In this document: positions 15,900 through 61,107 of the stretch, piece after piece
Layout: each line of letters opens with the position of its first letter
Position numbering within the stretch: the first letter of the stretch is position 1
Source of the DNA: a virus
Virus record (IMG/VR): IMGVR_UViG_3300032117_000009
Location: 32,001 to 96,000 of that record
DNA length: 64,000 nt
Strand: one strand, 5' to 3'
Program-made: the position numbers and the translations under genes
Notes under the pieces: generated by a model
What the model was told of the DNA's origin: nothing
The model's input: the letters and a program-made list of their open reading frames with translations, nothing else
The model's database searches: none

Positions 15900-17522
15900 T
15901 TAAAGTGTGATGAGGTAATCGTCTTTTAATACATCTTGCTTCGAAACCGAAGCGGTTCTTGTGGTACGGCCCATCTCTGGAACACGGTTAGCCTTTGAGT
16001 TAGCAACTCGCATGGTTTGGCGTGTTTTTACCGCTCCGGTTCGCTCCATCGTGTCAAGAGTCATAATTACACCCTCAATCTTTGATGCAGACATTTTTTC
16101 ATACTGAGCAATGTGCTTAGCACGCTCATCTCTGTTAACCATGCCAAGTCGCTCAAGTCGATCTACAAGGTTAACGGCTTTCAGAAGGCCTTCACGATTA
16201 GAAGCAGTCTTTTCTCTTTCTACTTCTTCTTCTTCAGATTCCATCTCACGCTTTGATTCAGCATCAGACTTCTTCTTGTCATCCTTCTTATTATCCTTTT
16301 TCTTGTTCCTTTTAGCAACAGGCTGGTAAGGAGCAAAAGCTGGGTTTGTAGCATCACCAGGCCAAGGAGTCTTGTTCTCGCTTTGCTGCGGTACAAAACC
16401 AGTTGAAGCACCATCGTTGTAGTATGGTGGAACATCGGCAAGCTGAAGTTGGTTAGGCTGAAGGTTAGGTACAACTACATTGTCAATAAAATCAGGTGTC
16501 ATAACTTCTTGACGAGATTCTGTAACATCGTCAAGATCCTGCACTTGTGTTGGACGAGAAGTCTCTTGGTTACCATTAGTAGCCAGCTTGCCTTCTAATT
16601 GATCATGTACAGCCTTTAAATTGTCAATAACATTGGCAATCTTTACAGACTTGCCTTCCTTAAGGTGTTTGAAAATTATACCTAGTCTACGGTCAATAGC
16701 GTAAACTCGCTTGTCATTTTTAGCAGCAGACTTAATAGCATTGTGAGCAGCCCACATAGCCTTATCTACTTCCTCAACGCTACCTCGCTCAGCAAGACCC
16801 TTTGCAGCTTGACGAACAAATTTAGCAGCAGCACGCTCACCAATAGGTTGTTCCTCAGCATAAATATCAGGCTCAGCAACAACACGATTGTCACCAGGTC
16901 CACCCATAACATCCATAGCATCCAAATCTTGCACATTAATGTTGCGTGCAGGCATTACGTCCTTCCATTGTGAAGGCACTGGTGGTGGTGCCATTGATGA
17001 TAGACCTAATGGACCATCAAGGTACATGTTCGATACTTGATCGTACTGAACACCAGGTACCATAGCCTCTCTTTTACGAGGCCGTAGTTCTTTATCAAAC
17101 CGGCTCATATTAGCTCCTTGCCTTTGCTGTGTTACAGCATCTAGTTGTTGCATCCTTTGCAAATCTCTTAACTTAAGTAATTCTTGCTCAAGTTCATTAA
17201 TTCTTGTGCTAGGATCATTTTCCGCAGAACTTACATCAGATGCTTGATCTGCTTCTTGGTCTTCAACAGCTTGCTCTGGGTCTTCCTCTTCTTGTTGTTG
17301 TGGAGGCCCAGCACCTGCAGGCTGCGGTTCATATTGTGGATCACGACCTTTTTTATCAGTATCGGGATTTTGGAAATCTTCTGGTGGAGCTTCATAACCA
17401 CAAGAATCACAAAGCATTCCATCAAATTCGGAACCACATACAGGGCATTGAGATTCATCACGCATTGTGTCAACATCAGCTGGCAAACGCATGATCTCCT
17501 TTGATACCCTTAAATTAGGCAT
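15900..17522 (-). CDS. Capsid scaffolding protein with N-terminal Zn ribbon
   Basis: Lies between protease and capsid genes; CPVC...CDSC, long low-complexity and coiled-coil segments, helical C-terminus, KTAS/RTAS motifs. Confidence 0.7.
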   Translation of the reverse strand: MPNLRVSKEIMRLPADVDTMRDESQCPVCGSEFDGMLCDSCGYEAPPEDFQNPDTDKKGRDPQYEPQPAGAGPPQQQEEEDPEQAVEDQEADQASDVSSAENDPSTRINELEQELLKLRDLQRMQQLDAVTQQRQGANMSRFDKELRPRKREAMVPGVQYDQVSNMYLDGPLGLSSMAPPPVPSQWKDVMPARNINVQDLDAMDVMGGPGDNRVVAEPDIYAEEQPIGERAAAKFVRQAAKGLAERGSVEEVDKAMWAAHNAIKSAAKNDKRVYAIDRRLGIIFKHLKEGKSVKIANVIDNLKAVHDQLEGKLATNGNQETSRPTQVQDLDDVTESRQEVMTPDFIDNVVVPNLQPNQLQLADVPPYYNDGASTGFVPQQSENKTPWPGDATNPAFAPYQPVAKRNKKKDNKKDDKKKSDAESKREMESEEEEVEREKTASNREGLLKAVNLVDRLERLGMVNRDERAKHIAQYEKMSASKIEGVIMTLDTMERTGAVKTRQTMRVANSKANRVPEMGRTTRTASVSKQDVLKDDYLITL

Positions 17523-18174
17523 ATGGAACCATTTTCTTGTCTAGGAACCAGGCACTCTCATCTGCTGGGTCAAAAACACAGCTAAGTTCAAAGAAATTTG
17601 GATTGTGACAATTTTCCCAAACCAAAGCTTCTTTTCTGGAACCGTTCTTATAAATATCTAACCTCATGCCCTTCATATAAGGAAGGTGTTCGCAATAGTC
17701 ACGTTCGGTTTTAGCGTTATTGCCACATGCAGAACACGTAGTAGAGCCTACATCAGCACCCATGCTTACTCCAGGAATTTGACCACTCATAATTGCTTGG
17801 CCAAGTTTTGGAAAAGTATGAGAATCGATTTCCATCAAACAGTACACAGAACCATCTGTGTGCCCTGATGCAAGTCTTGTTTCTTTATAAAGAGCATCAA
17901 GCACAACTCCACGAGCCTCTTTTGGATCACTATTGTTGTGCTCTACAAAAACTGGACGACCTACAAAAGTTTTGTAAGCCTTTTTAAGTTCTCCTACTGG
18001 CCAGCCATCGTAATTAGCATTGACCCTAGAAGATATCGCCCTAGAAACTGCATAGAGATAGCCAGGACGCTCCTGGTAATCAAAATCCTTTAGTGTGATA
18101 GGATGAATTTTGACTTCCTCAGCTTTCTTGAGGAAGCCTCTACGTTCTAGAGTTGGTGCGCCGAATTTTATCAT
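17515..18174 (-). CDS. Prohead (maturation) protease, HK97/herpes assemblin fold, with Zn-finger insert
   Basis: Catalytic His in PVFVEHN, catalytic Ser in GVSMGA, C-terminal FFELSCVFDPA; CSAC...CEH insert. Confidence 0.85.
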   Translation of the reverse strand: MIKFGAPTLERRGFLKKAEEVKIHPITLKDFDYQERPGYLYAVSRAISSRVNANYDGWPVGELKKAYKTFVGRPVFVEHNNSDPKEARGVVLDALYKETRLASGHTDGSVYCLMEIDSHTFPKLGQAIMSGQIPGVSMGADVGSTTCSACGNNAKTERDYCEHLPYMKGMRLDIYKNGSRKEALVWENCHNPNFFELSCVFDPADESAWFLDKKMVPYA

Positions 18175-18235
18175 AATGATCTAACTCTAAATTTGAGTAA
18201 AGAGTTTAAATACATTCTTTTTGCAAAAGAAATAT

Positions 18236-18878: not shown

Positions 18879-21800
18879 TTACATCTTTCCTTCATCATTT
18901 TGAAAATCTAAACCAGCACCAGTGTTACCATATCCAACTTCACCATCATCAGCAACACCATGCTGCATAGCTTCATTCGCAGCTTCATTATCGCTACCAA
19001 CTGCATTTGCAACACGATAATTTTCTTCAAAATCTTCTAAATTAAACTTTTCGTATTGGCTATCTGTAACAATTTTCATACCTTTTATTATTGTCATTTT
19101 ACGACGAAGTTGCTGCTCTTTAGGAACACCAAAATACATACGACCACCATATTCAGCTACATAACCATCATTATTAGATGCAGTTTTTGTAGAGGCGGTT
19201 TTAAAATCAACAGAATTTCTTTCTCCACAATTAGGGCATGGATTATTTAAAGTTTTCCCAACGAGTGAATCTTTATCAAGATCATCATAATCGCCTAACC
19301 AATCACAGGAAGAGCATTCAACTGGATTATCGTAGATATCAAAATCATAATCGCCATTGTTAAAATCATCATCATATTCATATGAAGAACCAGTTACAGA
19401 AGATTTCTTTGTTTTCTTTGTATCTGTTTTCTTTTTCGTTGGCTTCTTAGGTTGTGATTTCTTTTGATCATCAGATTCTGCTGGGCGCTGCGGTGGAATC
19501 ATACCTGGCATAAGGAACGGGCCTACCATGCTATCTGCATCAGCTTGCGTACCAGGAGTAAGAATATTAGGTGCTGATGGTTGTGATGTTATGTCAGCAA
19601 TGCCTTGTGGTGACATTTGTGCAATCATTTCAGGATTTTCTTGCTGCATATTGTATGCCATGAACTCTTGATAGTATTCAGGAGGAATAGGAAGTTCAAG
19701 AGCAATAAGACGCTCAAAGAGATCTTTTTTAAACCTTTGCTCAGCAACAACAGTTTGAAGTTTTTCTTCTGTCTTAGCTTCAATTTCATCTTTAAATTCA
19801 ATAGGAATATTGATAGCCATAGTTTTAAGAGAAACAGGAAAACCTTGACCAGCAAGCTCCATAACAAATTGACGCTCTACCTGCTCATCTCTTAAGTTCA
19901 TAGATTTAAACTGAACATCAGGGATGGCAAGTTTTGGACGCTCTTCTACGTACTCTTCTCCAGTTTCTTCATTTACAAGAAGAACTGTTTCCATGACAGG
20001 AATTCGAGCATTGCCAACTTTACGATATTCATAATGTCCTTGACGTTCAGCAACAGGACGCATACGTTCTTGAACAAATCTTGCAATCTTCTTCTGGTAT
20101 GTTGTGAGCATGTTAGTAATAAGCTCACGGTTAAGGGCACCAGAGGCATATGGGGCACCGCTCTTACCACCTTGCAGAAGTTCAGCACCAATACCGAACA
20201 CTTGCATAACCTTAGACTCAACACGTAAGAAGTCCTGGTCAAGACGAGGCATAGCTTCTCTACCGAATGCATTCTTAATATCAAGTCCATGGTGATAAGT
20301 CATCAAACGGAAGTCTGAATTGATAGCAAGTGCTAGGTCATCACGAAGTTGTTGAAGCTCAGTAGCGTCAGGAATCCAGGGTCCATCCTCGTCTACGTCT
20401 GGAAGACCAAGGGTAGCAAGAATAAGTGGTGAATATAACCTATCAGCAATAGCGTCTTGAGCAGCATTAAGCGATTCTTCAAGCATAAGCATACGGAAAG
20501 CACGAAGAAGAATTGGGCTACCGTGTTCTGACCATGGGTTAGTATTGTGCGTTACTAACCCAGCAGTTATGTGGGTGTGATAGTCGGCAATACCAATTGC
20601 CATAGTTTCTTCATCTTGTCCTAGCTCAATTTTTATAATTGAATCATAGGGGAAGTTGGATGGACGAGTATTTTTAACCGGAATTTCATCTGGAATGGCT
20701 TTTCTATTGCAAAGGGGTTTAACAAAGCTAGCGAGAATAGACTTTGACTCTTTTTTGCCAACTATTAAGCGATAACCATAGCCAGAATCTGGAGCATAAT
20801 CATATTTTGGAACATCATAGATTCTTGACTCTACGCCTAAGAAAGAAAGAAGTATTTGACAATCTTCAAGCAAAGGACGATTCATACTTGTCCAAACAAC
20901 CATGCCGTTTGAATCTACGTGGCCATCTGTGTCAAAATATCCTGCTAGGAATTCTGACCAAAATTCTTTTCCACCTTCCCAAACAAATGCAGGGACTCTC
21001 TTTGTGTGCGTTGTTTGTCCTCTAACTCCACAATCTACAAGTAGTTGTTTGATTAGATTTGGATTTTTAGTTTTTTCTCCCTGAGAAACAATCCATGAAA
21101 TTTTTGTAGATCCAGCTTGTGAAAGCTTGCAACCATAGGAAGCAACAAACTTATTCATCCAATCAATATTTTCTTGATCTTCATTATGGAACATAATTGT
21201 CTTATGCCCATAACTACCATCGCCAACCATCATTCCAAGGAATCTAGCAATGTCTTTTTCTTCATTGTTGTTTTCTTTATTAGAATAATTGTGTCCAACC
21301 AAAAGGTTTGTTCCAATAGTAAGATCAGAAGCTTCGACCCAACCATTTTCAGTAAGAAATGGGTGCTCTGAGTTAACACCAATCCTTCTACCTTGTTTTG
21401 TTGTAATCCAATAAATTGGCTCTGGATCGTTTATCCCCTGATGACTTACAGTGCTATGTACAATCTTATTGGCAGTCTCATCCCATGCAAGAACTTCATC
21501 GCCAACAGCAAGGTCCTGAGCTTTAATTGGACCAGATGGAGTCATGATATCAGTAGACCCAACAACACATTTAAATTTAATCTGTTTCATAAGAACATCA
21601 GAAACAGGAATTTCTTTATCCTGTCGTGCCCAGGCTACAACATCTGGGTAAAGTTGCATAAGTGCTGCATACTCTGGAGCAGGATCACGAGTATCAATAA
21701 GCTTCTTGATTTCATCAGGCACCTTGATGTGATACTGATAAGTTCTAAGTGCTCTATTCTTAGCTACAATAACGTCATTTGGGTTAATAATCTCGTCATC

Positions 21801-22400
21801 TTCCCAGGCACCAATACCATCGTGCCAAGAACCCATAGCAAAAGCTTCACCTACGGTCCAATGCTCACGGCCAAGGTCAAAAAGGAATTCGTCATAATCA
21901 AGACCATCAAAGAAAAGTTCTTGATAAAAATCAGCAATTTTTGGGTCTTGGTGAGTGAATTCAATATCTAGAAGTGGAAAACGAGTATAGATATCAATAA
22001 GCGAAGGTACGAGATAGTGAGTCGTGTACATAAGACGAGTCCAGTCACGAATCTTCTGAATCTGCTCGTCGGGGTCCTCCATGTTGAACCACCAAGTACG
22101 CTCACGCCAATACTCGAAAGGATCGTGGAGCTTAGGCCATGCCCATTGAGCATCGGTTCCCATAGCAGCACCTGTACGTCTGCCCATACCTTCCATATTG
22201 CGAGCAGATTGCTCATCAAATTGAGAAGATGCAGTTCTACCATCAAGGCGTTTTCTAGCTCTTGATTCAGAAGATTGCTGATTCATCACATCTTGTTTAA
22301 AAGATCCAGGAAGAATGAGCTTTTTAGCAGCAGCTCTTGATGCAGCTGCTTTGCGAATAGGTTCCCTTGGTAGGGTCAAGCCCTCGCCGTTATTAGCCAT
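18879..22400 (-). CDS. Portal protein, intein-containing
   Basis: Portal-like core (YTTHYLVPSLIDIYTRFPL...NPWSEHGSPILLRAFR...AIADRLYSP) upstream of the protease; about 831 aa after removal of the 342-aa intein. Confidence 0.8.
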   Translation of the reverse strand: MANNGEGLTLPREPIRKAAASRAAAKKLILPGSFKQDVMNQQSSESRARKRLDGRTASSQFDEQSARNMEGMGRRTGAAMGTDAQWAWPKLHDPFEYWRERTWWFNMEDPDEQIQKIRDWTRLMYTTHYLVPSLIDIYTRFPLLDIEFTHQDPKIADFYQELFFDGLDYDEFLFDLGREHWTVGEAFAMGSWHDGIGAWEDDEIINPNDVIVAKNRALRTYQYHIKVPDEIKKLIDTRDPAPEYAALMQLYPDVVAWARQDKEIPVSDVLMKQIKFKCVVGSTDIMTPSGPIKAQDLAVGDEVLAWDETANKIVHSTVSHQGINDPEPIYWITTKQGRRIGVNSEHPFLTENGWVEASDLTIGTNLLVGHNYSNKENNNEEKDIARFLGMMVGDGSYGHKTIMFHNEDQENIDWMNKFVASYGCKLSQAGSTKISWIVSQGEKTKNPNLIKQLLVDCGVRGQTTHTKRVPAFVWEGGKEFWSEFLAGYFDTDGHVDSNGMVVWTSMNRPLLEDCQILLSFLGVESRIYDVPKYDYAPDSGYGYRLIVGKKESKSILASFVKPLCNRKAIPDEIPVKNTRPSNFPYDSIIKIELGQDEETMAIGIADYHTHITAGLVTHNTNPWSEHGSPILLRAFRMLMLEESLNAAQDAIADRLYSPLILATLGLPDVDEDGPWIPDATELQQLRDDLALAINSDFRLMTYHHGLDIKNAFGREAMPRLDQDFLRVESKVMQVFGIGAELLQGGKSGAPYASGALNRELITNMLTTYQKKIARFVQERMRPVAERQGHYEYRKVGNARIPVMETVLLVNEETGEEYVEERPKLAIPDVQFKSMNLRDEQVERQFVMELAGQGFPVSLKTMAINIPIEFKDEIEAKTEEKLQTVVAEQRFKKDLFERLIALELPIPPEYYQEFMAYNMQQENPEMIAQMSPQGIADITSQPSAPNILTPGTQADADSMVGPFLMPGMIPPQRPAESDDQKKSQPKKPTKKKTDTKKTKKSSVTGSSYEYDDDFNNGDYDFDIYDNPVECSSCDWLGDYDDLDKDSLVGKTLNNPCPNCGERNSVDFKTASTKTASNNDGYVAEYGGRMYFGVPKEQQLRRKMTIIKGMKIVTDSQYEKFNLEDFEENYRVANAVGSDNEAANEAMQHGVADDGEVGYGNTGAGLDFQNDEGKM
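20544..21569 (-). mobile_element. Intein with LAGLIDADG homing endonuclease (342 aa)
   Basis: Begins with C1 (K|CVVGSTD), block B GVNSEHPFLT, LAGLIDADG motifs FLGMMVGDG and FLAGYFDTDG, ends VTHN|T with a +1 Thr. Confidence 0.95.
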
Positions 22401-23342: not shown

Positions 23343-23918
23343 TTAGACCTCAGCGTTAAATTTGAATTCTCCGCTAAGGACCTTTAACGCATGATTAGCA
23401 AGGTCTTCGTCGGAAAAATCTTTTGAAGATTCTTGTGGTTTAATAATACCATCAAACATTTTATCAAATTGTTGTTCAGATGTTATAACTGGTTTTTCTA
23501 TTACTGGTGGTGCTTGAACTTGAGAAATAATTTCTGGAACTTCAATTTCTGCAACTTCTTCTTTTAATTCTTCAATTATTGAATATAATTGTTGAATTTT
23601 TAAGTTTGTCGTTTTTATATAATTTTTGATAGAATCAAATTCATTCTTACCGTAATATTTTTTTAAATAATCTACGCAAATTTGCCATACAAATGGTAAA
23701 TCTTCTTTTAAACCGTTAAGGTAAATAAGATCACCATCTGGTCTTACTTTAAATTCAAATTCACGGCCCTCGGAATCTAATAAAACTCCAGTAATTTCTT
23801 TTGGCGTTGTTTTGAACTCAACAATGTCAACTATACCGCAAATATTTGCATATTCTTTTTTTGGAATTTCTTCCGTTTTGTTAATTCGTTGGGTTTTTGA
23901 AAACCAGTTGATAATCAC
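23343..23918 (-). CDS. Hypothetical protein
   Basis: ORF in operon with a coiled-coil centre. Confidence 0.5.
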   Translation of the reverse strand: MIINWFSKTQRINKTEEIPKKEYANICGIVDIVEFKTTPKEITGVLLDSEGREFEFKVRPDGDLIYLNGLKEDLPFVWQICVDYLKKYYGKNEFDSIKNYIKTTNLKIQQLYSIIEELKEEVAEIEVPEIISQVQAPPVIEKPVITSEQQFDKMFDGIIKPQESSKDFSDEDLANHALKVLSGEFKFNAEV

Positions 23919-24372
23919 TCTTCTTCTCCATTGAGGCCTTGCGGTCCTCCCAGACTACACAGAATTCTTTTTCTCCAACTACAAGGACAGAACCCTGTAC
24001 TTTGTTACCTTTTTTATTAGCAAAAATAACTTTTGCACCAGCAATTGTTGGAGATTTTGTAGAAGCAACAACGACCATCTGAATATCTTTTCGAGCTTGA
24101 CGCTTACGAAAACCTGAAGCTTGAGCAGCAGTTCTCATATATGGAGCAGTTTGCTGAGCTGGGTTTTCATATGGATTTTCATGCTTATTGCTGTAGTTAT
24201 CACGATCAATTTCAGCAGCCCAAGCAGCACGAGAATCGTCTACAGTTTGACGATTTTGTTGAGCGTCATTTTGTACAGTGTTCATGTAATCATATGGCAT
24301 TGGTGAACCTGGAAGGGCAAAGTCTGCAGCAACATCACCGGCACTAAAGTCTTCTGTTGTGTAGTTATCCAT
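23881..24372 (-). CDS. Hypothetical protein with SH3-like C-terminus
   Basis: Strong SD TAAGGAG; acidic N-terminus, RTAA motif, then GAKVIF...QGSVLVV...FCVVWED. Confidence 0.5.
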   Translation of the reverse strand: MDNYTTEDFSAGDVAADFALPGSPMPYDYMNTVQNDAQQNRQTVDDSRAAWAAEIDRDNYSNKHENPYENPAQQTAPYMRTAAQASGFRKRQARKDIQMVVVASTKSPTIAGAKVIFANKKGNKVQGSVLVVGEKEFCVVWEDRKASMEKKSDYQLVFKNPTN

Positions 24373-24480: not shown

Positions 24481-25383
24481 TTACCATTCTATTTTATGAC
24501 TTGATACCATTGTACCATGTTCATAATCTGCAACTGGGTGGTCATGATCGCATGCATAAGCTCCATGTTTATGAGCTTCATCATAAACTTTTAAAAGGTC
24601 TTTTTCATTATAACCTTGAAGCCAATTGTTTCTAAATCCATGATGATTAATGAGATGATTTTTCAAACTTTCGTATGAAGCATGTTTATGAGATCTAGGA
24701 TAAATACCATCGCCATTACTATCAAGACCATTAACTTGTTCTCTTGTCATATTTCTTGGTGGTCTAAATGATCTTGGAGCATTTATTATTGTGTGCAAAT
24801 CTTCTGCAACATCTGGGGTTAATGCAGACTGATCGTTTGCTTGAAGCATGCTAGCATCTTCATAAGTATCTTGCGTAGTCATGCCAGGGCTTTTTGCAAT
24901 TTTTAATTTACCTTTATTACAATTAGGACAAGTTTCTCCAACGCCACCAAAAAAATCTGTTTCGTCGTCATCACCAGGATCTAATTCTTCTCCACATTGA
25001 TCACATTCTAAATCTATAGATGGAGCAGCTTTATAAACCCTTGCAGAAACAGAAAAACCATTTTCTTCTCCAAGAATTTCTCCATTATCAGAGCATCTTG
25101 GACAATATATTAAAGTATCGCCACTTTGTGTATGTGGGTACCCTTGCGATGAAGGAAAAGAACTATGGCAACCGGCACAATAAGATGTTGAAGATTCTTT
25201 TTTATTTTTTCTTTCCCAACCCATTCTTTTATAAAGGTCGTCAAGAATAATATCTCTTGTCCTTGGAACATGAACATCATCCTGTTGACCAGGGCAATAT
25301 GTTGTTCCACGACTATCAACCCAGTCTTCATTATCATTTGGGTAAATGCTGTCACCACAATGCCAGCAAATAGCTTTTTCCAT
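24481..25383 (-). CDS. Modular Zn-ribbon protein (putative cargo polyprotein)
   Basis: Three Cys-pair modules plus a His-rich module, separated by KESS, YKAA, KIAK and KHAS. Confidence 0.6.
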   Translation of the reverse strand: MEKAICWHCGDSIYPNDNEDWVDSRGTTYCPGQQDDVHVPRTRDIILDDLYKRMGWERKNKKESSTSYCAGCHSSFPSSQGYPHTQSGDTLIYCPRCSDNGEILGEENGFSVSARVYKAAPSIDLECDQCGEELDPGDDDETDFFGGVGETCPNCNKGKLKIAKSPGMTTQDTYEDASMLQANDQSALTPDVAEDLHTIINAPRSFRPPRNMTREQVNGLDSNGDGIYPRSHKHASYESLKNHLINHHGFRNNWLQGYNEKDLLKVYDEAHKHGAYACDHDHPVADYEHGTMVSSHKIEW

Positions 25384-25385
25384 GT

Positions 25386-42628: not shown

Positions 42629-42662
42629 GTTATTTCTCCTTATAGGAATTGCTTAAGTTTTT

Positions 42663-52048: not shown

Positions 52049-52745
52049 AGCGGTTACAGCTAGAAAGGTGGTCTATTTCAGGATAATAATCATTGCAATT
52101 ACAATTATGGCATAAATCATATGCACAATCTGGGCAATAGTCCTCAGACCCTTCATTTACCCATTCATTATATGGATCTAAACTGTTATTATTTTTAGCA
52201 CCACATCCATCACAAATAGTTAAAATGTGTAATTGCTTAGACGATTCTCTCCAAGAGTTCTGGTAATCATTGGTAAGCTCTGTACCACCAGGTCCTTCGT
52301 TATCAATGTATCCACCGCAATCGGGGCACTCATTGTACTCATAAGCGTAATCAATGGCTTGCTTAGATATTTGATTCTTATCGCAATGTGGGCAAGTGTA
52401 TGGTTCGCCAGCAGCAATCTTTACAGAAGCTGTATGGGTATCATCATCGTCATCTTTACGTACAATAGTAATTTTAGGCCACTTATGGCCATCAGAAGGC
52501 TTATCTGTGCCTTCAGGCCATTTTTGTGGAGCTGGATTAGGATTAGGAAATACTTCTGACCATGGGCCAGTCATCTTTTCATAATCCTGATCGTCAATAT
52601 CCTTAAGACGATTAATCATATGATCAATTTCAGGATCAAATTGATTTTCTCCAGGGTGTGCTTGATTCATATGATCAGCACGCTCTTGTAACGTATATCC
52701 TGCCCAGTCACAATGGGAGCAGCCTAGCCCAGGCTCATACTCCAC
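51993..52745 (-). CDS. Modular protein: C2H2 finger + two Zn modules
   Basis: CSHC...HMNQAH; separators HTASVKIAA and WRESS. Confidence 0.6.
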   Translation of the reverse strand: MEYEPGLGCSHCDWAGYTLQERADHMNQAHPGENQFDPEIDHMINRLKDIDDQDYEKMTGPWSEVFPNPNPAPQKWPEGTDKPSDGHKWPKITIVRKDDDDDTHTASVKIAAGEPYTCPHCDKNQISKQAIDYAYEYNECPDCGGYIDNEGPGGTELTNDYQNSWRESSKQLHILTICDGCGAKNNNSLDPYNEWVNEGSEDYCPDCAYDLCHNCNCNDYYPEIDHLSSCNRFDKGGNCSCPPCGCDCHV

Positions 52746-52753
52746 TGGGCTGG

Positions 52754-53581
52754 CTATTTTGGGGAATTCCCCCTAAAGTTATTTGGGTAATTAGGGGCGC
52801 TTTTAGGCATTTCATAATGAGTTTGCGAATTAACATCTTGTGGATGTGGTGGTGATGAAACAAGGTTTGGCTCATTATAAAGAAGTCCTTGCTTATAACC
52901 CTGATAGTAATCCATGGAGAGATTAGCCATTCCCTCATCCATTTCTTTACCAGATGTAGCATCGGAATAACCTTTATAAAATACATCGGAGTCAGAAGCT
53001 ATTTTATTCATTGTCTTATAATAGTCTTCTGCTGTCCATTTAGATGCAGTAGAAGTAGGCATTTGTGCTGTTTGTGGCATATTAGCTGTTTCTGGCATGT
53101 CTACGTTTGAAACAGCGGAAGCGCCTTCTTGAACATCTGGAGAAGACATTTCTGGGCTAGGCATTACATCTGCTATTACCCACGAAGAAGCAGATACAAG
53201 AATGCCCTCAGGGTTTTCTTCAGTATCGCTCATCACTGTGCCAGCAATGGGTCCAAGGTCCATGTACATTTCATCATTAGCTGTATCATTTACAGCAAAT
53301 CGGTTATGGTTACCTTGCTCAGAAATCTTTTTGTGCGTATCCCAACAGCAACCACAACCAACTTCCATTGGGCAAACGTGGTCATCATGGAAGTTATCTT
53401 CGGCATCACGACAAGTTACACAAGTATTATCCAGCAATGGATGTGAACTATATGCACAACTCATGCTTGGGTAATTAGTTGGGTCACCACAATGCTGACA
53501 GATAGGACCATCTCCTAAGCTAGCATATGCTTTAAAACTGTCTTGGCCCTCTAGCTCAGACCAGCGTGGCGGTAATGTCAT
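52754..53581 (-). CDS. Modular Cys-rich/acidic protein
   Basis: SD GGAGAA; separators NRFAV, STASKWTAE and NKIAS. Confidence 0.55.
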   Translation of the reverse strand: MTLPPRWSELEGQDSFKAYASLGDGPICQHCGDPTNYPSMSCAYSSHPLLDNTCVTCRDAEDNFHDDHVCPMEVGCGCCWDTHKKISEQGNHNRFAVNDTANDEMYMDLGPIAGTVMSDTEENPEGILVSASSWVIADVMPSPEMSSPDVQEGASAVSNVDMPETANMPQTAQMPTSTASKWTAEDYYKTMNKIASDSDVFYKGYSDATSGKEMDEGMANLSMDYYQGYKQGLLYNEPNLVSSPPHPQDVNSQTHYEMPKSAPNYPNNFRGNSPK

Positions 53582-53683
53582 TCTATTCTCCTTGGACAGG
53601 CAAAAATCTTGGCACCAATGATTTCTATTACAAAGGACGACTTGTTGATAATTTTAGTTGAAATTCGCTTAAAATGCTAGTTT

Positions 53684-54235
53684 CTATGACCAATCAATAT
53701 TATTGTATGGGTTCATGCATTTGATGGCTTGCTTATGGCCTTTAGTTATAGCATCAGGAACTATTTTCTCAACAAACTTATGTTTTTTCATATAAGCGTC
53801 AACAGCTTCAGGGTTATCAATGTTGTTAGGTTGCTCTTGAAGCATTTTGTAATAAAGATTTTTGCTTGCTTTAGAAAGTTCGTGACCTATGTGATCAACC
53901 AGGTGATTACCACTTAATGATTTTCCGTCTAATCCCCATTTATGGTCTTCTGCATATTCAATGTCTTCTGGTGAAAATGAACGTAATATTTCTTCAACGT
54001 CATTGTTATTAATACACCAATTATTATGACATCCATCAAATGGTGTATTACGCCCTAACCCACGTCTTAAATCTATTGGGTTATCACATCTTCCACATGT
54101 TTCTTCATATTTGTGAACAACTCTGCCATGGTAACTATTGTACTCAAATGGCATATCGTCGTAATCACTATCTTTGTAGTTTATACAATTTGGAATTTCA
54201 TTCCATAAACCCATGTTACCAAAGCTCCCCATCAT
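53684..54235 (-). CDS. Hypothetical Zn-ribbon protein
   Basis: CGRC...CHNNWC; ends NIDWS. Confidence 0.5.
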   Translation of the reverse strand: MMGSFGNMGLWNEIPNCINYKDSDYDDMPFEYNSYHGRVVHKYEETCGRCDNPIDLRRGLGRNTPFDGCHNNWCINNNDVEEILRSFSPEDIEYAEDHKWGLDGKSLSGNHLVDHIGHELSKASKNLYYKMLQEQPNNIDNPEAVDAYMKKHKFVEKIVPDAITKGHKQAIKCMNPYNNIDWS

Positions 54236-54734
54236 CAGAAATCTTGAGCTTGTTGAGTCTTCCTCTTGACATATCCCATGGATTGTTATACCCTAGGTCC
54301 CTTTTCTCATTTCTGTCCCATACCATTTTGTTTTCTGGTCTATATGGGTAAACATCATCATGTGGGCTAAAGAATGTATAGTTTTGTTCATTACAGGGTA
54401 TATTCCCACAAACAAACATACCATGTTTACGATGAAATGCTTCTAGCTCATCATTGTCGTTTAAATCTTTGATTTCATGGATATCTTTTGGATGGCTACC
54501 CAGAGAACCACGATAAAAATCATTTATATATTCATTGCGTTCATGTTCGTTATACCCTTGGAAATTATCCTGTTTGTGTGCAATATATTCATCAATTGGC
54601 ACTGGTGATACTGTTGAGCATCCACACTGAGGGCAATTAATCTTTTTACCACTCTCGCTATACCAATTATCTGACCAGTTGCCACCCTGGTTATTAAGCG
54701 CCCAATCGCCAATTTCCATTTTTTGCATGATCAA
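54216..54734 (-). CDS. Hypothetical Zn-ribbon protein
   Basis: CPQC...CGNIPC; ATGA coupling. Confidence 0.5.
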   Translation of the reverse strand: MIMQKMEIGDWALNNQGGNWSDNWYSESGKKINCPQCGCSTVSPVPIDEYIAHKQDNFQGYNEHERNEYINDFYRGSLGSHPKDIHEIKDLNDNDELEAFHRKHGMFVCGNIPCNEQNYTFFSPHDDVYPYRPENKMVWDRNEKRDLGYNNPWDMSRGRLNKLKISDDGELW

Positions 54735-55639
54735 CCTATCCTAAAGTCCATACCAGACCAGTGGGAACAAACATCACAATCGCATTTCTTCCCATGACGA
54801 ATTAAACCAGGTGCATAATCTTGCACATCAAGGATACGCCCATTACTACCAAGAGTATAGATACGCTTCGATTGCTTAAAACGATCTTCCCATATGTTAG
54901 CGTCTTCTGAAAGTTTATTTTCCATATTCTGGTGAGCATGCTCTTTAGTTATGTTGGCGTAATCAATAATTTTGCTCTTAGCCTCTTCTGCACTTGTTGT
55001 ATCATCACCAAGATTAGTCCTAGCAATTGCAGGAGACAATATACCAGCATGCTCTACTCTTGGAAAAAATGTGCAATCAGTTGAGCTAGGATTATTTGCA
55101 TTCTCTGATGGGTGAAAAGTATATGTTGGAGCAAAATTTCCATTGTTATCACCAATTTTCAATGGCTCTTCTTCAAAAATTCCACCACCGAACATTTTTC
55201 CCATATGTTCTTTCCAGCTGTCAAGGGCTTCATCGTTGTCAACAGACTCAGGAAACTTCTGAGTATGCGAGAATTGATAGAAATGGTGATCTCCACCTTC
55301 TTTTTCAGATGGAATAGTGATATGCCATCCTGTGGCTACATTGAATGGCAAGCTACTTGGGCTGAGGTCATGACCATCATGCTCGTCAAAACCAGGTACA
55401 TGAAGCTGCTCAATATTTAATTTTTTATTATTGATCTCTGAATCCATGATTGGGTGTCGGTCAACTGCATGGAAATGAGGGTCATGTATTGCGCCATCGC
55501 ATGAAAAAAATGGCCCACGCTTCTGTTTTAACTCTTCTGGGTCAAGAATTTCTTTTCCGGTCTTTAAATCTCTGTTATTAACTGGTTTGTACGGCTCATA
55601 ATAACTATCATCAGTAGCTGCGATGACGTATTGGCTCAT
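54731..55639 (-). CDS. His-rich domain protein (paralog of 55642..56514)
   Basis: GPFFSC...PHFH.VD.HP...LNI.Q.HVPG.D.HDG...TGWHI shared with the paralog. Confidence 0.6.
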   Translation of the reverse strand: MSQYVIAATDDSYYEPYKPVNNRDLKTGKEILDPEELKQKRGPFFSCDGAIHDPHFHAVDRHPIMDSEINNKKLNIEQLHVPGFDEHDGHDLSPSSLPFNVATGWHITIPSEKEGGDHHFYQFSHTQKFPESVDNDEALDSWKEHMGKMFGGGIFEEEPLKIGDNNGNFAPTYTFHPSENANNPSSTDCTFFPRVEHAGILSPAIARTNLGDDTTSAEEAKSKIIDYANITKEHAHQNMENKLSEDANIWEDRFKQSKRIYTLGSNGRILDVQDYAPGLIRHGKKCDCDVCSHWSGMDFRIG

Positions 55640-55641
55640 TA

Positions 55642-56514
55642 TTAATACCGGCCCTTATTCTTCTTAGAATTCTTATACAGCTCTTCCCAAATGTCAGGGT
55701 TTTCCTCTGACTTTTTGTAATTCTGTATAATACTATTCATATCTAGCTTGTCAGCATAGTTTAACAGAGAATTCTGTGATTCTGAAGAATTATTGTGGCC
55801 TTCAAATATTTTTGTACGTGAGAAAGAAGGACGAATTCTGCTCTTCATTTGTTTAGATGGGTGGAATACGATACTGTAAGCCTTTTCACCTGGCTTTAAA
55901 CCAAAAGGAACTTGTTGCTGTTGCTTTTGTTGCTCTTGTTGCTGTTCTTGCTCTTGTTGCTTTTCTTGCTCTTGTTGCTCTTGTTGCTCTTGCTCTTCTG
56001 GCTCTTGTTCTGGATCTTGTTCTTGCTCTTCACGCTCTTTTGGCTGTTCTTTGCCAGGAAGAAAGTCATAAACAATATCGCTAGGGTCTTTTGCATTATC
56101 AGCTGGACGCTTAATGAATGCACCAGGACCGTGTACGTTAGTACACTCTTCCTTCCACAGGTCTAAAGCTTCATTAGCGTCTGTTGTGGTACTATACTTC
56201 TTTGTGGCTGAGAGTTGAGTGATATGTGAATTTGTATTTGGCTCAATGATGTGCCAACCAGTGATAATGTGGTATGGAGGCATAGTTGAGAAATTAGTTT
56301 TTACGTTGCCATCATGCTGGTCATAACCAGGAACGTGCATTTGACGAATATTCAAACCCTCATTGTTCTCAATGTCTGGGTGACCATCTACTACGTGGAA
56401 GTGTGGGGTTTCCTTTTTCCCATAACAAGAGAAGAAAGGACCTCTCCCACTACTTGCTGGTGCATAAGGCTGTTCATCGCCATCATCAGATGCATATACG
56501 TAATGTAAACTCAT
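55642..56514 (-). CDS. His-rich domain protein with poly-Gln/Glu insert
   Basis: Same domain as 54731..55639 plus an EQ-rich tract. Confidence 0.6.
   Translation of the reverse strand: MSLHYVYASDDGDEQPYAPASSGRGPFFSCYGKKETPHFHVVDGHPDIENNEGLNIRQMHVPGYDQHDGNVKTNFSTMPPYHIITGWHIIEPNTNSHITQLSATKKYSTTTDANEALDLWKEECTNVHGPGAFIKRPADNAKDPSDIVYDFLPGKEQPKEREEQEQDPEQEPEEQEQQEQQEQEKQQEQEQQQEQQKQQQQVPFGLKPGEKAYSIVFHPSKQMKSRIRPSFSRTKIFEGHNNSSESQNSLLNYADKLDMNSIIQNYKKSEENPDIWEELYKNSKKNKGRY
55912..56050 (-). repeat. Imperfect short tandem repeat (cttgttgct-like) encoding a Gln/Glu tract
   Basis: Visible DNA periodicity; translates EQQEQQEQEKQQEQEQQQ. Confidence 0.85.
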
Positions 56515-57011
56515 TGATCATACCATTCTTTTTGAGCTTTTTTAATATTTTTCCATTGAACATCATGAAGTCGGTGGCGAACTTCACCATTTCTTATGTC
56601 TTTTTTAATTTTTTTGATTTTCCACCATTTTAACATCTGATGATGTTTGTTGTCTGGGTCGTCAGGATCTACTGATCTTCCCTTATCTGATAAATCTACG
56701 AGCTTTTCTTTTGAAATAACGTAAATATATCCGTGATAACCGACTTCTTGGAACTTGCCTTTGAACAATCCAGCAGGAAGTTTGCGCCCAGTTTCTTCTT
56801 CCCACTCTCTCACTGCTGCTTGGAACGGGTCTTCACCCTTTTTTACATGCCCACCAGGAAATTCCCATACTCCTGGGCTGTTCAATGGAAGCTCAGAGTG
56901 TGACCTTCTCTTAAGCAATAGAACATTACCAGTGTCCTCTGCTTTTACACAGAGTCCAGCTAGAACATCAGTATCATCAGGTGCTTTGAGTGCGTATCTC
57001 ATATCAATCAA
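56511..57011 (-). CDS. NUDIX hydrolase
   Basis: Nudix box GGHVKKGEDPFQAAVREWEEETG preceded by WEFP. Confidence 0.92.
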   Translation of the reverse strand: MIDMRYALKAPDDTDVLAGLCVKAEDTGNVLLLKRRSHSELPLNSPGVWEFPGGHVKKGEDPFQAAVREWEEETGRKLPAGLFKGKFQEVGYHGYIYVISKEKLVDLSDKGRSVDPDDPDNKHHQMLKWWKIKKIKKDIRNGEVRHRLHDVQWKNIKKAQKEWYDQ

Positions 57012-57378
57012 AAAAATGCTTATATGGGTTTTCTATAAATGGCTCTTCTATATCATCAATATGTACTCTATGTAAGTCTTTATATGGATAAATTGGTAAA
57101 TAGTCGTAATCACTTTCCCATTCGTGATAACGGTAAAGACATGGTTCACAAAAAAAGTGATTTTGTCTTCTCAAAGCTTTATGATTATATTTGTTTTTAT
57201 AATCTTGTCCATATTCACAAGAAGTATCAGCGCCTAAATCACCATAAAGATCGCCTTCTATTCCTTTATAATGGCCATTATACAACGTATCCGTTTTAGA
57301 CACTGGATGAATGTATGAACTATCGCAATTTGGGCAAACAAGAATATGTTCTTCATTGTCATGAGCATGATAAGCCAT
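57004..57378 (-). CDS. Small Zn-ribbon protein
   Basis: CPNC...CEPC. Confidence 0.55.
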   Translation of the reverse strand: MAYHAHDNEEHILVCPNCDSSYIHPVSKTDTLYNGHYKGIEGDLYGDLGADTSCEYGQDYKNKYNHKALRRQNHFFCEPCLYRYHEWESDYDYLPIYPYKDLHRVHIDDIEEPFIENPYKHFFD

Positions 57379-58151
57379 TATATTCTTCCCTTAGTCTCAT
57401 GCCATGGACCCCAATGACCATGATGCTGGATAAGATTTCTTAGCTCTTCCTGCCCATAACGCTTTTCCACAACTGGATTGAAGAAAGCTTCAAATATTTC
57501 TCTTGGAAACGTTTCATCAGTAGTTGGCTCATGAATAGTTCCATCTGAATGTTCTACCCAACCGTGAGCTAATGGTGGGCTTCCCATACCTTGGATAGTG
57601 CCATGAACTAATACTGCTCCTGGGTCACCACCAAATATTGCTCTTCTACCAGAAAGCTGGAAACATCGCCCCATTCTTCCTTCCATCGTTGAATCATCTT
57701 CGTAATTTTCATCATCTTTATCTTCATCCCAATCTTTTGAAGCGCCGTGAAGATTGAACTCAAGCTGATCTGGGTTAGGGCATTCTCCACAGTAACATTT
57801 GTCTGGGTAATTGCATACTTTATCTATGCCTGGGTCTTTAAGAGGCATTATTTTTTGTATTGTCATTTTACTTAAAGGAGCTAGGCCTTTAGGTGGCGAC
57901 CAATATTTATTGTTTGTTTCGTCATACTCACCTTCATACCAATTATCAAAACAATTATGACATGTAAATTGAGGTTCTTGCCTATTTAAATCACCATAAG
58001 CATCTTTATATGCTTTCATACACGCTTCGTCATCTACAAAAATATTTTTCCATTGATACCCATGTGGTTCTATTTGTTCAACATTATCAAAACCACAGTC
58101 TGGGCATGTAAGAATAGCACTTTTTTCTTTAGGATAGCGCATCATAATCAA
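57378..58151 (-). CDS. Zn ribbon + transglutaminase/papain-like (Cys-His-Glu) domain
   Basis: GRCFQLS...LVHGTI...AHGWVEHSDGTIHEPT after the HGAS separator. Confidence 0.55.
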   Translation of the reverse strand: MIMMRYPKEKSAILTCPDCGFDNVEQIEPHGYQWKNIFVDDEACMKAYKDAYGDLNRQEPQFTCHNCFDNWYEGEYDETNNKYWSPPKGLAPLSKMTIQKIMPLKDPGIDKVCNYPDKCYCGECPNPDQLEFNLHGASKDWDEDKDDENYEDDSTMEGRMGRCFQLSGRRAIFGGDPGAVLVHGTIQGMGSPPLAHGWVEHSDGTIHEPTTDETFPREIFEAFFNPVVEKRYGQEELRNLIQHHGHWGPWHETKGRI

Positions 58152-59326
58152 TAAAACTCTCTCGAAGAAGATTTCCAGTCAATTTCACTGTATGGGTTGT
58201 ACCCAGGAGCGCACTTGTACATATTGGCTTTTGTATTGAGCAAAGTCTTATTTACGTCTTCTACACTAAAATCATCTTTGGTAAGTGCAAGGTTTGTAAT
58301 GTCATTAGCAAAATGGTATGCTTCATGATCGTTTAAATCGTATTTGCCTGAGTAATCTTCGTAATGATTAGCAATTCCACTAGCTACGTATCGTGCATCT
58401 TTATCATGAGCTTTTAAAACGTCATCATGAGTAACAACAGGCCCTCTAGCATATGCATAGTCACCTACATTAATTCCTTTATCATGGGCATCTAAAATTT
58501 CATTTTTATTAAGATTAGAATTTTTGGCATATGCATAATCACTTAAATCAATACCTTTATTATGAGCTTCTAAAAGTTCATTATGATTAATATCAGAGTC
58601 TCTAGCATGTACATAATCATATAAATTAACACCATTATAATGAGCTGCTAAAATTTCTGCGTTACTAGGCTTAGTATATATTGGGGTTTCTTCCAAAGGA
58701 TTGTTCTCCGAGTTTGGTATTACTTTTTCAGAAGCTTCAAAATACCATGGTGTGTTTATTTTTACATTATCTATCAAAGAACTATAATTACCTTCTACAA
58801 ATTGATCATCAGATATTTGACGTAGGTGTGGGCAATGTATTCTTACTAAACGCATGCATTCTTTATGATATGGCAATGTATCGCTTCCAAACTCACCAGA
58901 TCCAGCTGATCCATAATAGTCTTCTTTATCTGGTTGCCAAGCTACTGCTTTATCATTGTCTTCAAATCTATCACCGCACATAGGGCAACATCTTTTATCT
59001 ATGGATTGCATAACTGAATTATCTAGTTCGTCTTTGGCAAAATTTGGTATATCTTGTGCATCAACTCTTGTGCTATTCCATGGCATTGGAATTCTTTTAA
59101 ATAATTTGCGGTCACCTATCTCATAACCCATTCCTTCATTTTTGGGTGTTAAGCGATCATATATTTGATTTTTTTCACGAGTCTTCACGTAAGGCCTTGG
59201 CAAGCCTATTACTTCTGGACCTTTTGGACTAAATTCTTGTGCTTTAGCTGCAATATGCAACATGTGACTAGGACCACTACAAAATAAGCAATCTGAGTAT
59301 GTAGCTGATTCATGGTACCATGCCAT
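58148..59326 (-). CDS. Modular protein: HCPHL domain + ~26-aa helical repeats
   Basis: N-terminal paralog of 44090..44728; repeats E[IL]L.AH..G[IV].[LV].DY..A[RK]. Confidence 0.6.
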   Translation of the reverse strand: MAWYHESATYSDCLFCSGPSHMLHIAAKAQEFSPKGPEVIGLPRPYVKTREKNQIYDRLTPKNEGMGYEIGDRKLFKRIPMPWNSTRVDAQDIPNFAKDELDNSVMQSIDKRCCPMCGDRFEDNDKAVAWQPDKEDYYGSAGSGEFGSDTLPYHKECMRLVRIHCPHLRQISDDQFVEGNYSSLIDNVKINTPWYFEASEKVIPNSENNPLEETPIYTKPSNAEILAAHYNGVNLYDYVHARDSDINHNELLEAHNKGIDLSDYAYAKNSNLNKNEILDAHDKGINVGDYAYARGPVVTHDDVLKAHDKDARYVASGIANHYEDYSGKYDLNDHEAYHFANDITNLALTKDDFSVEDVNKTLLNTKANMYKCAPGYNPYSEIDWKSSSREFY

Positions 59327-59329
59327 TAG

Positions 59330-60370
59330 TTATCTATCATACCAATTCTTAGATGAGAACATAGGCTTTTGTCCACCAAGAGTATTATTATTTCTGTCAT
59401 AAAGGAATTTATGCATATGTTCTATATGTTTTTTGACAGTATCAACATCATTTTCACCTTCTACATAATCAATGGGTAAAAAATGAGCTTGTGACCAAGA
59501 AACACCTATTTGATTCCCATGTTTATCGTTAATTGGTTCATGATGAAAAACTACATGCCCGTTATCATATGAAGCATGATACGTTGCATTATGCAAATCT
59601 TCATATTTTTTTGCTTCTGTTTTAGCTTCATCTAAATTTTTTGATCTTCCATATATGTCATACATACCCGTAAAATTATCTGTTCTCCCCTCTGGGTGTT
59701 CATGCTCTATGTGTCCAGAAAAAAGATGACCTTTCCCAATATTTGTAGCACTATTAGGTTCAGTTACATTAATAGAATTATCAATGCCATTTTCATTATA
59801 TGGTGGATAATTCATAAAAGATATTTCATGATATGGTTCATGTGACCATTCTTCTGGCTTCCATTCGCCAGTTGTTTTATTGTATGCAGCTTCATGATAC
59901 CAATTCATTGATGACTCTTTTTCTTTACCATACTTTCCGCCACGCTTCTTGTATTCTTTAACAACCCAAGCATTAGCTACGGCAGAAGGATATACATCAA
60001 ACTTTTGCTTGGCCTCAGACTTAACTTTAGAATATAATTCTTTGTCTGTTGGGTCGCCCTTACGATGTTTGATGATATGATCGTAATCTTTTTTGTTTTT
60101 ACCAGAATATTTACCTATACTGCCTTGATAAAGATCACAATCACAATGTTTACACTCTGACCAACCATCATCTAACGTAGTATGGTCCTCGTCATCGTGA
60201 CCACATCCACATAGGCCACAAGCATGGAACTCAGTATCTGGGTGATACTCAGTACCACAATGATTACATGCTATGTCGCCATTACCTTTGAGTCTAAATT
60301 GATTTGATAGATCATTAAAAAGATGTTCTGAAAAATCATGATTGTCCTTATCAGCGTAGTAATAACCCAT
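59330..60370 (-). CDS. Modular protein: Zn module + basic helical module + copy of the 30338 domain
   Basis: KESSMNWYHEAA precedes YNKTTGEWKPEEW. Confidence 0.6.
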   Translation of the reverse strand: MGYYYADKDNHDFSEHLFNDLSNQFRLKGNGDIACNHCGTEYHPDTEFHACGLCGCGHDDEDHTTLDDGWSECKHCDCDLYQGSIGKYSGKNKKDYDHIIKHRKGDPTDKELYSKVKSEAKQKFDVYPSAVANAWVVKEYKKRGGKYGKEKESSMNWYHEAAYNKTTGEWKPEEWSHEPYHEISFMNYPPYNENGIDNSINVTEPNSATNIGKGHLFSGHIEHEHPEGRTDNFTGMYDIYGRSKNLDEAKTEAKKYEDLHNATYHASYDNGHVVFHHEPINDKHGNQIGVSWSQAHFLPIDYVEGENDVDTVKKHIEHMHKFLYDRNNNTLGGQKPMFSSKNWYDR

Positions 60371-60372
60371 TA

Positions 60373-61107
60373 CTAGCCCTTAAGCTTTTGTATGTCAGCT
60401 TGAAGGTCGGATAGACGGAAATTGCGTAGCTTTCCAGCCTCTACAGCCTCAGGAGTGATTATTGCCCATGTCTCTTCGAGGTAGCACTGAAACCACTGCT
60501 TTGTTACAGCTTGGATCTCTCCCCAGGTTACAACATAAAAGTACTTTTCATCATAACCAACGATGATGACACAGTGGCCACCTTCAATCTGCTGGTCAGC
60601 TGGAGTACCAGTAAGTGCCCATGGCTTGCCCTCTTGGAACTGCTGCATGCAAGGGGCAGGGACAAGAATACCGATGTAACAGAAGCCAAAGGCATTGACT
60701 ACTGACTTGATCTCATCGAAGTCCTTGTGGTCAGTAGGAGCGTAAGCAGCGATCTTTGATCCAAATAGACCCTCTGATTCCCAATGGGCGAGAAGATCAG
60801 CTTCAATAGCACCTTGGTCGGCACCATTGGTATACTGGAGGTAAGCGTTAACTACGTCTTGGTCGTTAAGAAGCTTTTCTTTAACGCCATCGAGCTGAGC
60901 TACCGCCATCTTAGCGTGGTAAGCTCCAGCGAATGTGCAGTCGCCATACTTATCATTACCAAGCATGTACCAATCTGGTACAGCAGGAGCACCAAGAGTG
61001 GCAGGGGCTTTTGGAAGAGGATTTTCCTGGTAATAAGCTAACATGTGTAGACCATCTGGCCTAACAGCTGGCTTACGACCTAAACGACCTGCAATACGCT
61101 CTGACAT
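60373..61107 (-). CDS. Papain-like cysteine peptidase (C1-like)
   Basis: MLGNDKYGDCTFAG (catalytic Cys); GGHCVIIVGYD...VVTWG (catalytic His). Confidence 0.8.
   Translation of the reverse strand: MSERIAGRLGRKPAVRPDGLHMLAYYQENPLPKAPATLGAPAVPDWYMLGNDKYGDCTFAGAYHAKMAVAQLDGVKEKLLNDQDVVNAYLQYTNGADQGAIEADLLAHWESEGLFGSKIAAYAPTDHKDFDEIKSVVNAFGFCYIGILVPAPCMQQFQEGKPWALTGTPADQQIEGGHCVIIVGYDEKYFYVVTWGEIQAVTKQWFQCYLEETWAIITPEAVEAGKLRNFRLSDLQADIQKLKG

Follow-up and report, generated by a model that had tools for sequence, protein, structure and literature searches.

Prohead proteases of phages T4 and HK97 and of the herpesviruses act inside procapsids. The DNA analysed here, hereafter the window, comprises 64,000 nucleotides (bases 32001-96000 of the 124,688-bp virus record IMGVR_UViG_3300032117_000009, 37% G+C) from an uncultured freshwater phage. 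It encodes a prohead protease and, between the early region and the portal gene, an upstream block of ~37 kb (24.4-61.1 kb). A tetrapeptide, [K/R]-x-[A/S]-S, recurs in the head proteins and between the modules of many block proteins. That this tetrapeptide marks the sites at which the prohead protease cuts polyproteins packaged in the head is the explanation preferred here, to which an even chance of being right is given.

A first system for comparison is that of T4, with the protease gp21 and the internal proteins IPI-III and Alt. The T4 internal proteins are small, kept in the head, and injected (PMC9026906, PMC3012670). The window phage resembles T4 in the protease fold and in a short consensus common to structural and internal proteins. 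However, the T4 site is [L/I]-x-Glu, which is cut after Glu, whereas that of the window phage is [K/R]-x-Ala/Ser-Ser. In addition, T4 cargo proteins are single-domain and hold an N-terminal targeting leader, while those of the window phage would be multi-module chains with a C-terminal Trp tail and no common leader.

The proteases of phiKZ- and SPN3US-type jumbo phages (gp175, gp245) belong to a family related to the window protease, which has tblastn matches to jumbo-phage head maturation proteases at 25-30% identity. During head maturation of jumbo phages, a single motif with a preference for Ser at P1' is the cleavage site in numerous head and ejection proteins, and the proteases of both T4 and the phiKZ/SPN3US group cut after Glu (PMC10052503). 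The phiKZ/SPN3US motif is A-x-E, and its cleavage mostly removes N-terminal propeptides, contrary to the separation of tandem modules proposed here. These phages also have virion RNA polymerases and inner bodies, none of which was seen in the window phage.

Herpesvirus assemblin shares with the window phage the fold, the Ala-Ser core of the site, and a site near the scaffold C-terminus, just before a conserved tail. In herpesviruses, cleavage at this M site releases the scaffold from the capsid protein. Nevertheless, the herpes consensus holds a hydrophobic residue at P3, not Lys or Arg, and herpesviruses do not have cargo polyproteins.

With respect to the architecture of the block, the closest likeness is found in the polyvalent proteins of phages and conjugative elements reported by Iyer et al. 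in 2017 (PMC5512222). As in the window block, they consist of unrelated modules that are shuffled rapidly, are encoded near head genes, and are predicted to travel with the DNA. The window block differs from them in that it involves ~20 genes, with small Cys/His modules of no database family and one linker code common to the scaffold and the portal, and in that its polypeptides do not include a protease domain. Finally, the Trp tail alone is analogous to the cargo-loading peptides of encapsulins, since both are short C-terminal tags on unrelated proteins for an HK97-fold shell, although they show no sequence similarity. Neither the [KR]xAS code, nor the Trp tail, nor arrays of zinc modules were found in the literature searched.

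Enrichment of the tetrapeptide in the head genes and the upstream block

The strict form of the motif, [KR]xAS, and a broad form, [KRH]x[AS][AS], were counted and compared with 500 within-protein shuffles. The strict form occurs 23 times in the upstream block (4.0 expected, z 9.4) and eight times in the head genes (1.5 expected), whereas the tail genes, with 2 versus 1.7 expected, are at the chance level; the early genes contain 1 versus 0.4. For the broad form, the counts are 54 versus 23.2 in the block (z 6.7), 19 versus 7.0 in the head genes (z 4.9), and 7 versus 8.5 in the tail genes. Across the whole 124.7-kb genome, the density of the motif peaks only at window 16-56 kb, in parallel with the content of Cys and His. 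The initial annotation of this DNA had proposed that such motifs recur in the head genes and the block and are scarce in the tail genes, which these counts bear out; the comparison it had recommended, of head plus cargo genes with tail plus early genes, confines the enrichment to the head genes and the block.

When every combination of three residues in a stretch of four was scanned without bias, K.AS and R.AS came out first among the non-cysteine patterns, even with the 1249-aa repeat protein (48299-52000) left out. Without this protein, they add up to 24 matches versus ~5 expected, while eleven control motifs with K/R, A, and S in another order or spacing reach 3-15 (4-16 with the repeat protein), also against ~5 expected; in the same proteins as these control orders, the forward order has 31 matches. 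As the other residue orders are near expectation, the enrichment is specific for order and region. An artefact of composition was rejected on these grounds and because the tail genes are at chance, and an origin in the tandem-repeat protein alone was rejected because the excess (24 versus ~5) persists when that protein is left out.

Not all the forms of the motif listed originally were retained. [KR]-x-[A/S]-S stands, but the His, A-A, YAS, and LKKA variants are mostly noise. The LKKA at the N-terminus of the protease, formerly regarded as a site, is not conserved among relatives, and two further matches, an HRAA that falls in an HNH-like motif and a KIAA inside a papain-fold enzyme, are fold elements and not linkers.

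Sites on head proteins

The motif is present on the canonical substrates of a prohead protease (the scaffold C-terminus, the portal tails, the protease itself, and the capsid protein N-terminus), and it is conserved there in 30-48 distinct relatives. The scaffold-like protein, which aligns to the C-terminal part of fused proteins of 1089-1236 aa in the relatives, carries two sites (Table 1). A strict site is found within the last 70 scaffold residues in 33 of 37 distinct relatives, with T-A-S conserved at the position of the RTAS, and K-V-A-S constitutes a second conserved site in these proteins.

The portal bears sites in its terminal extensions. The equivalent of its KKSS, K[KT][AS]S, is kept in 38 of 40 distinct relatives. 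The zinc-ribbon cassette of the portal tail is present in the window phage and in L003/G006, and absent from L002, L006, and L007. This portal also contains an intein with a LAGLIDADG homing endonuclease (20544-21569, minus strand, residues ~278-619); the portals of relatives have either ~780 aa without an intein or 1127-1520 aa with insertions.

The major capsid protein has 63% identity to its counterparts in cluster C mycobacteriophages, Gordonia phages, and Rhodococcus phage E3. The alignment of its KEAT with a conserved sequence of the relatives suggests that it may lose ~37-45 N-terminal residues, though it has no long delta domain. In the head-region protein encoded at 23881, the site (W-D-D-[RK]-T-A-S in relatives) is kept in 29 of 30 distinct relatives.

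When the relatives were grouped by orthologs, [KR]xAS exceeded expectation 15.5-fold in the 23881 homologue, 9.9-fold in the scaffold, 9.2-fold in the protease, 4.5-fold in the capsid protein, and 3.4-fold in the portal, while cement and neck proteins stayed at or below expectation, with 0.8-fold in the cement protein and 0.3-fold in the 13628 homologue; because the sequences of the relatives are related, these ratios reflect retention and not independent events. Around the protease, the motif is in 3-5-fold excess at most of the 71 related IMG/VR loci, but not at the two most distant ones.

Similar sites were observed in more distant phages whose protease belongs to the same family. Gordonia phage Stormageddon has five sites in the portal (1.3 expected) and six in the protease-scaffold protein (1.6 expected). 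In Bacillus phage G, the gp19 protease shows KVAS248 and KIAS274 just past the protease domain, and the portal has KMAS at residue 55 plus two C-terminal sites. The scaffold of mycobacteriophage Phabba holds KVAS1162 and RTAS1190 in its last 50 residues, but the enrichment in this phage is weak (the protease-scaffold protein has 3 versus 0.9, the portal none), and Tonenili shows no motif enrichment, which indicates that the code is not uniform across cluster C phages.

Sites at module junctions

Several independent lines of sequence comparison indicate that the sites mark module junctions. The product of 48299-52000 consists of ~12 modules linked by Y..AWGF[DN]KKAS, and the protein ends exactly at ...AWGF. 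Its polyprotein family has only nine members among 5.8 billion proteins (~30% identity); linkers of the WG[FL]xKKAS type are present in most of them, and six terminate with ..WGF, ..WGL, or a similar sequence. The 1249-aa protein was not found in five relatives of 110-133 kb, a peptide-pattern search of viral contigs gave nothing, and a search of the ESM Atlas led to no result. Counted from the ATG at 52000, this protein has an N-terminal site at residues 11-14 (27-30 of the 1249-aa ORF). Some block proteins begin in this way, with a short N-terminal peptide that ends in a site at residues 16-19, 23-26, or 11-14.

A second line is provided by G006, a relative represented by 51.6 kb, in which the head proteins are 78-97% identical to those of the window, whereas the block proteins are only 25-60% identical and are rearranged. 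One of these rearrangements is a gene fission at a site: the window protein encoded at 44734-46698 reads ...IDWKKSM-KQSS-VIVCPICGG, while G006 has two genes at the counterpart of this junction, of which the first ends in ...AWGFGDSQ and the second starts with M-KESS-AVICPICGG. The protein encoded at 33036-34940 is composed of a zinc module, KNAS (34431-34442), a ParB-like module, RTAS (33957-33968), and two repeated modules of ~150 aa. The ParB-like module is flanked in G006 by KQSS and RIAS, and a different module has moved ahead of it.

Duplicated domains follow the same pattern. The second domain copy of 30338-32236 begins directly after KFAS, and its paralogue in 59330-60370 begins at an aligned HEAA, a few residues past a KESS; the G006 version of 30338-32236 has 1030 aa and more domain copies. 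In the two proteins encoded at 24481..26819, an HTSS aligns with an RTAS of the relative G001. Considering all homology breakpoints, 22 of 94 are situated at most eight residues from a strict site, versus 6.2 +/- 2.4 for random positions. The fusion of the 24481-25383 and 23881 homologues in G006 has no site at the junction. Overall, single polypeptides encoded near the head genes combine several unrelated domains, and a comparison of the window with G006 reveals modules that were permuted, split, or fused.

The C-terminal tryptophan tail

Trp is located within the last four residues of 13 of the 41 block proteins, versus 3.1 expected. The tail takes the form ...[D/N]-W plus 0-4 residues, as in 53684, 42663, 41906, 36434, 33036, 30338, and 24481, and block proteins of G006 bear the same tails. 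Trp also appears within eight residues upstream of 18 of 35 block sites (5.3 expected), but only of one of nine head sites. The C-terminal Trp and the Trp that precedes the sites suggest a common grammar, namely module - [D/N]-W - 0 to 5 residues - [K/R]-x-[A/S]-S - module, and block genes end where the linker would start. This tail may act as a loading tag or belong to the recognition signal, as its P-side part. The possibility that it is a by-product of the Shine-Dalgarno sequence of the next gene was rejected, because its codons do not contain GGAG and because genes followed by a long gap have tails too.

The prohead protease

The AlphaFold model of the protease encoded at 17515-18174, based on 28 homologues, has a pLDDT of 85. 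Among the top 30 Foldseek matches in the PDB, T4 gp21 (5jbl, prob 1.0, E 7e-3) is followed by the proteases of KSHV, HCMV, and PrV; the E-values are weak, but the matches are uniform. According to this model, the protease has the T4 gp21/herpes assemblin fold. In the alignment, His79 (in VEHNN) and Ser137 (in VSMGAD) are invariant across 28 sequences. Its relatives by sequence include the fused protease-scaffold proteins of cluster C actinophages, in which the protease is joined to the scaffold-like protein, and the head maturation proteases of jumbo phages found by tblastn.

A candidate self-cleavage site, RLAS, is located in the turn between the predicted strands 89-100 and 106-117, and [KR]LAS is kept in 36 of 44 relatives. 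A further feature of this protein is an invariant Cys-x2-Cys...Cys-x-His cluster (C147, C150, C161, and H163), so that residues 147-163 probably form a zinc site. The loop within this cluster is K-Y-A-S in most relatives, which itself matches the motif.

Table 1. Features of the window, with positions counted from its first base.
Feature	Position	Strand	Remarks
Major capsid protein, 335 aa	14300..15307	(-)	phrog_2522 at 5e-108
KEAT, capsid protein residues 35-38	15194-15205	(-)	aligns with conserved [KR]TA[TS] at residue 35-45 of relatives
Cement protein	15333-15884		head module
Scaffold-like protein, 540 aa	15900..17522	(-)	overlaps the protease stop by 8 nt; no Pfam/PHROG match
RTAS, scaffold residues 522-525	15948..15959	(-)	15 residues from the C-terminus, before the tail DD[YW]L[IM]TL
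KTAS, scaffold residues 438-441	16200..16211	(-)	
Prohead serine protease, 219 aa	17515..18174	(-)	phrog_2774 at 7e-68, phrog_18299; AlphaFold model
RLAS, protease residues 100-103	17866..17877	(-)	candidate self-cleavage site; turn between two predicted strands
Portal protein, 1173 aa	18879..22400	(-)	phrog_2833 at 9e-153; Pfam matches to intein and LAGLIDADG
Zinc-ribbon cassette of the portal C-tail, ~65 aa	19203..19397	(-)	bounded by KKSS and KTAS-T-KTAS (19176-19202)
KKSS, portal residues 998-1001	19398..19409	(-)	follows a Lys-rich stretch
RTAS, portal N-terminal extension, residues 55-58	22227..22238	(-)	kept only in the closest relatives
Head-region protein, 163 aa, conserved	23881..24372	(-)	W-E-D-RKAS, residues 144-147 (23932-23943), 16 residues before the C-terminus
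Two Cys-rich multi-module proteins, 300 and 477 aa	24481..26819	(-)	five strict sites in total; one has a Trp tail
Seven tRNA genes (Ile, Ser, Tyr, His, Pro, Asn, Thr)	27403-29301	(-)	interspersed with small nuclease-like ORFs; flanked by the head genes and the block
tRNA-Asn	28666-28740		
Two-copy-domain protein, 632 aa	30338..32236	(-)	domain also at 59330-60370; KFAS (31499-31510) precedes copy two
ParB-like protein, 634 aa	33036..34940	(-)	ParB PHROG and Pfam matches; ends ...KKNW
DNA polymerase exonuclease subunit	35018..35806	(-)	phrog_403 at 4e-85; no strict site, no Trp tail
Block genes with strict sites and/or Trp tails	36434..44087	(-)	36434, 37962, 38537, 39724, 40885, 41688, 41906, 42663
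Two Cys-rich proteins, 654 and 537 aa	44734..48302	(-)	related to the polyprotein modules; KQSS at 45925-45936 (residues 255-258 of the first)
Beads-on-a-string protein, 1233 aa (1249-aa ORF)	48299..52000	(-)	~12 Cys/His modules of 50-190 aa
Block part with sites and/or Trp tails	51993..60370	(-)	51993, 52754, 53684, 54216, 56511, 58148, 59330; several genes carry neither
Papain-fold (C1-like) cysteine protease, 244 aa	60373..61107	(-)	first block gene; model pLDDT 93

Proposed processing pathway and alternative explanations

In the pathway that we infer, the gp21/assemblin-fold protease would recognise [K/R]-x-[A/S]-[S/T] and, by analogy with assemblins, the Ala|Ser bond would probably be the one cut. 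Within the procapsid, the protease would detach from the scaffold its C-terminal 15 residues, a conserved tail to which the capsid protein is presumably bound, trim the N- and C-terminal extensions of the portal and the N-terminus of the capsid protein, and cut itself. This peptide also connects the modules of ~20 proteins whose genes lie upstream of the portal, and such polyproteins would accordingly enter the procapsid as it assembles and be cleaved inside it. This would yield ~50-60 small products, mostly Cys/His-rich and probably zinc-binding modules, plus a few enzymes such as the ParB-like module, which would remain in the head and exit with the DNA.

A bolder version, possible but doubtful, postulates a two-part address code in which the Trp tail loads unrelated modules into the procapsid and the assemblin-like [K/R]-x-A|S site frees them, with cassette shuffling generating a combinatorial arsenal. 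Such an arsenal would comprise ~50-60 injected zinc-binding mini-proteins and enzymes, derived from site-delimited cassettes that occupy about a quarter of the genome; the portal tail itself bears a cassette of this kind.

If the preferred explanation is true, [K/R]-x-[A/S]-S would join the x-x-Glu of T4 and that of the phiKZ group as the third code at which phage head proteases cut, and its herpes-like Ala-Ser core would strengthen the phage-herpes link in substrate logic. It would also mean that a mid-sized phage, and not only jumbo phages, gives about a quarter of its genome to site-bounded cassettes of injected cargo. The motif would then be a simple rule to predict virion cargo in this uncultured freshwater group, cluster C mycobacteriophages, Gordonia phages, and phage G.

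Several observations weigh against this explanation. A strict site is present in 19 of the 41 block ORFs and absent from 22, and orthologous positions sometimes do not hold the basic residue or the Ser, which means that the code is loose. The sequences of the relatives are non-independent samples, and ORFs just upstream of the portal in these relatives show only a 1.5-fold excess of [KR]xAS. Among the N-termini of the block proteins, no shared capsid-targeting leader of the T4 type was detected. A replication gene, that of the exonuclease subunit (35018-35806), is placed inside the block, and a second protease, missed by the initial annotation, is encoded at its head. Lastly, the literature searches returned no proteomic or biochemical data for this phage or for this protease clade, neither a paper on its specificity nor a virion proteome with mapped cleavages.

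The view from which this analysis started, that a prohead protease releases cargo from packaged polyproteins, survives in part. The motif, its position at domain boundaries (fission at a site, kept flanking sites, and the breakpoints), the gp21/assemblin fold modelled for the product of 17515-18174, and the conserved sites on its canonical substrates support it. On the contrary, the block does not behave as a uniform set of head cargo, because it is mixed and includes the polymerase exonuclease subunit, tRNAs, and HNH/EndoVII-type genes.

As an alternative, considered unlikely, the linkers could be cut by the papain-fold protease (60373-61107), in the cytoplasm or in the head, with a prohead protease of different specificity. 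No annotation was found anywhere for this enzyme. Its confident C1-fold model matches best Xylellain (3ois, E 1e-8), followed by cathepsins, and its Cys57 and His178 do not vary among 30 sequences. With 140 homologues in the phage lineage, it is a conserved core gene, which adjoins the block in G001 and G002. Moreover, Trp/Phe lies shortly upstream of many block sites (18 of 35 versus 5.3 expected), and with the Phe in W-G-F-[D/N], a bulky hydrophobic residue, at P2, the linkers would be fitting substrates for a papain-type enzyme. However, the head sites have this upstream Trp in just one of nine cases, and this protease might just as well be a lysin or an effector among the cargo. In addition, K/R-x-A-S sites occur on head proteins of Stormageddon, Phabba, and phage G, and tblastn revealed no homologue of the enzyme in cluster C phages, Stormageddon, or Bacillus phage G. 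The existence of these head-protein sites in phages without the papain-fold enzyme favours the prohead protease, although it does not prove its role.

It is similarly improbable that the block proteins, even if cut at the motif, are cytoplasmic polyproteins of middle or late expression, dedicated to host take-over or anti-defence, which would be joined to keep expression compact and would stay outside the head. The position of the block between the replication/early region and the head genes, the presence in it of the exonuclease subunit, HNH-like genes, and tRNAs, and the failure to find a capsid-targeting leader on its proteins would all be in accordance with this possibility. Against it, known prohead proteases act within procapsids, the same motif is found on the scaffold and the portal, and a site-flanked zinc cassette is fused to the portal tail.

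Equally doubtful is a non-proteolytic role of the motif, as an inter-module linker, an N-cap, or a site of Ser modification in multi-module proteins that stay intact, which would be compatible with a motif right after the start of free-standing genes (M-KESS in G006), where there is no upstream module to remove, and with a 23881 site inside a strongly conserved stretch that could be a folded element, but not with a motif common to unrelated modules and to structural proteins where prohead proteases usually cut, absent from tail proteins, and preceded in the linkers by the very residues at which proteins end (...AWGF and then a stop codon).

Gene content of the upstream block and genome context

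Nearly every protein of the block has no match in Pfam or PHROG. The only domains recognised are the ParB-like one and DUF5872, most modules having no match in these databases. Cys makes up 3.8% and His 4.2% of the block proteins, in which 34 CPxC motifs were counted versus 1.3 expected. The product of 36434-37777 (minus strand, 447 aa, 10.7% Cys) consists of about a dozen tandem C..C(R/D)..C..C units and ends ...IDWKK; it has no database match and no strict site. The relatives at ~60% protease identity have a smaller conserved core upstream of the portal, with no large polyprotein, and the large Cys-rich expansion is, judging from the genomes compared, specific to the window phage and its closest relative, G006.

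HNH- and EndoVII-like genes, membrane proteins, and tRNAs are also found in the block. In keeping with the translational coupling that had been proposed for its genes, 21 of 31 gene junctions overlap or are within 5 nt. Compared with its G006 counterpart, the exonuclease subunit shows 82% identity, against only 25-60% for the flanking block genes, which indicates that the block changes far more rapidly than this housekeeping gene within it.

The head module is arranged in the order portal, small ORF, protease, scaffold, cement, and capsid protein, with the tail genes downstream, at window 1-14 kb. The DnaE/DnaB/DnaG replication module is located elsewhere, at 112-121 kb of the genome. An exact repeat of 127 bp at both ends of the record (positions 1-127 and 124562-124688) implies that the assembly is closed and that the genome, of ~124.56 kb, is complete; 153 of its 164 ORFs are encoded on the minus strand.

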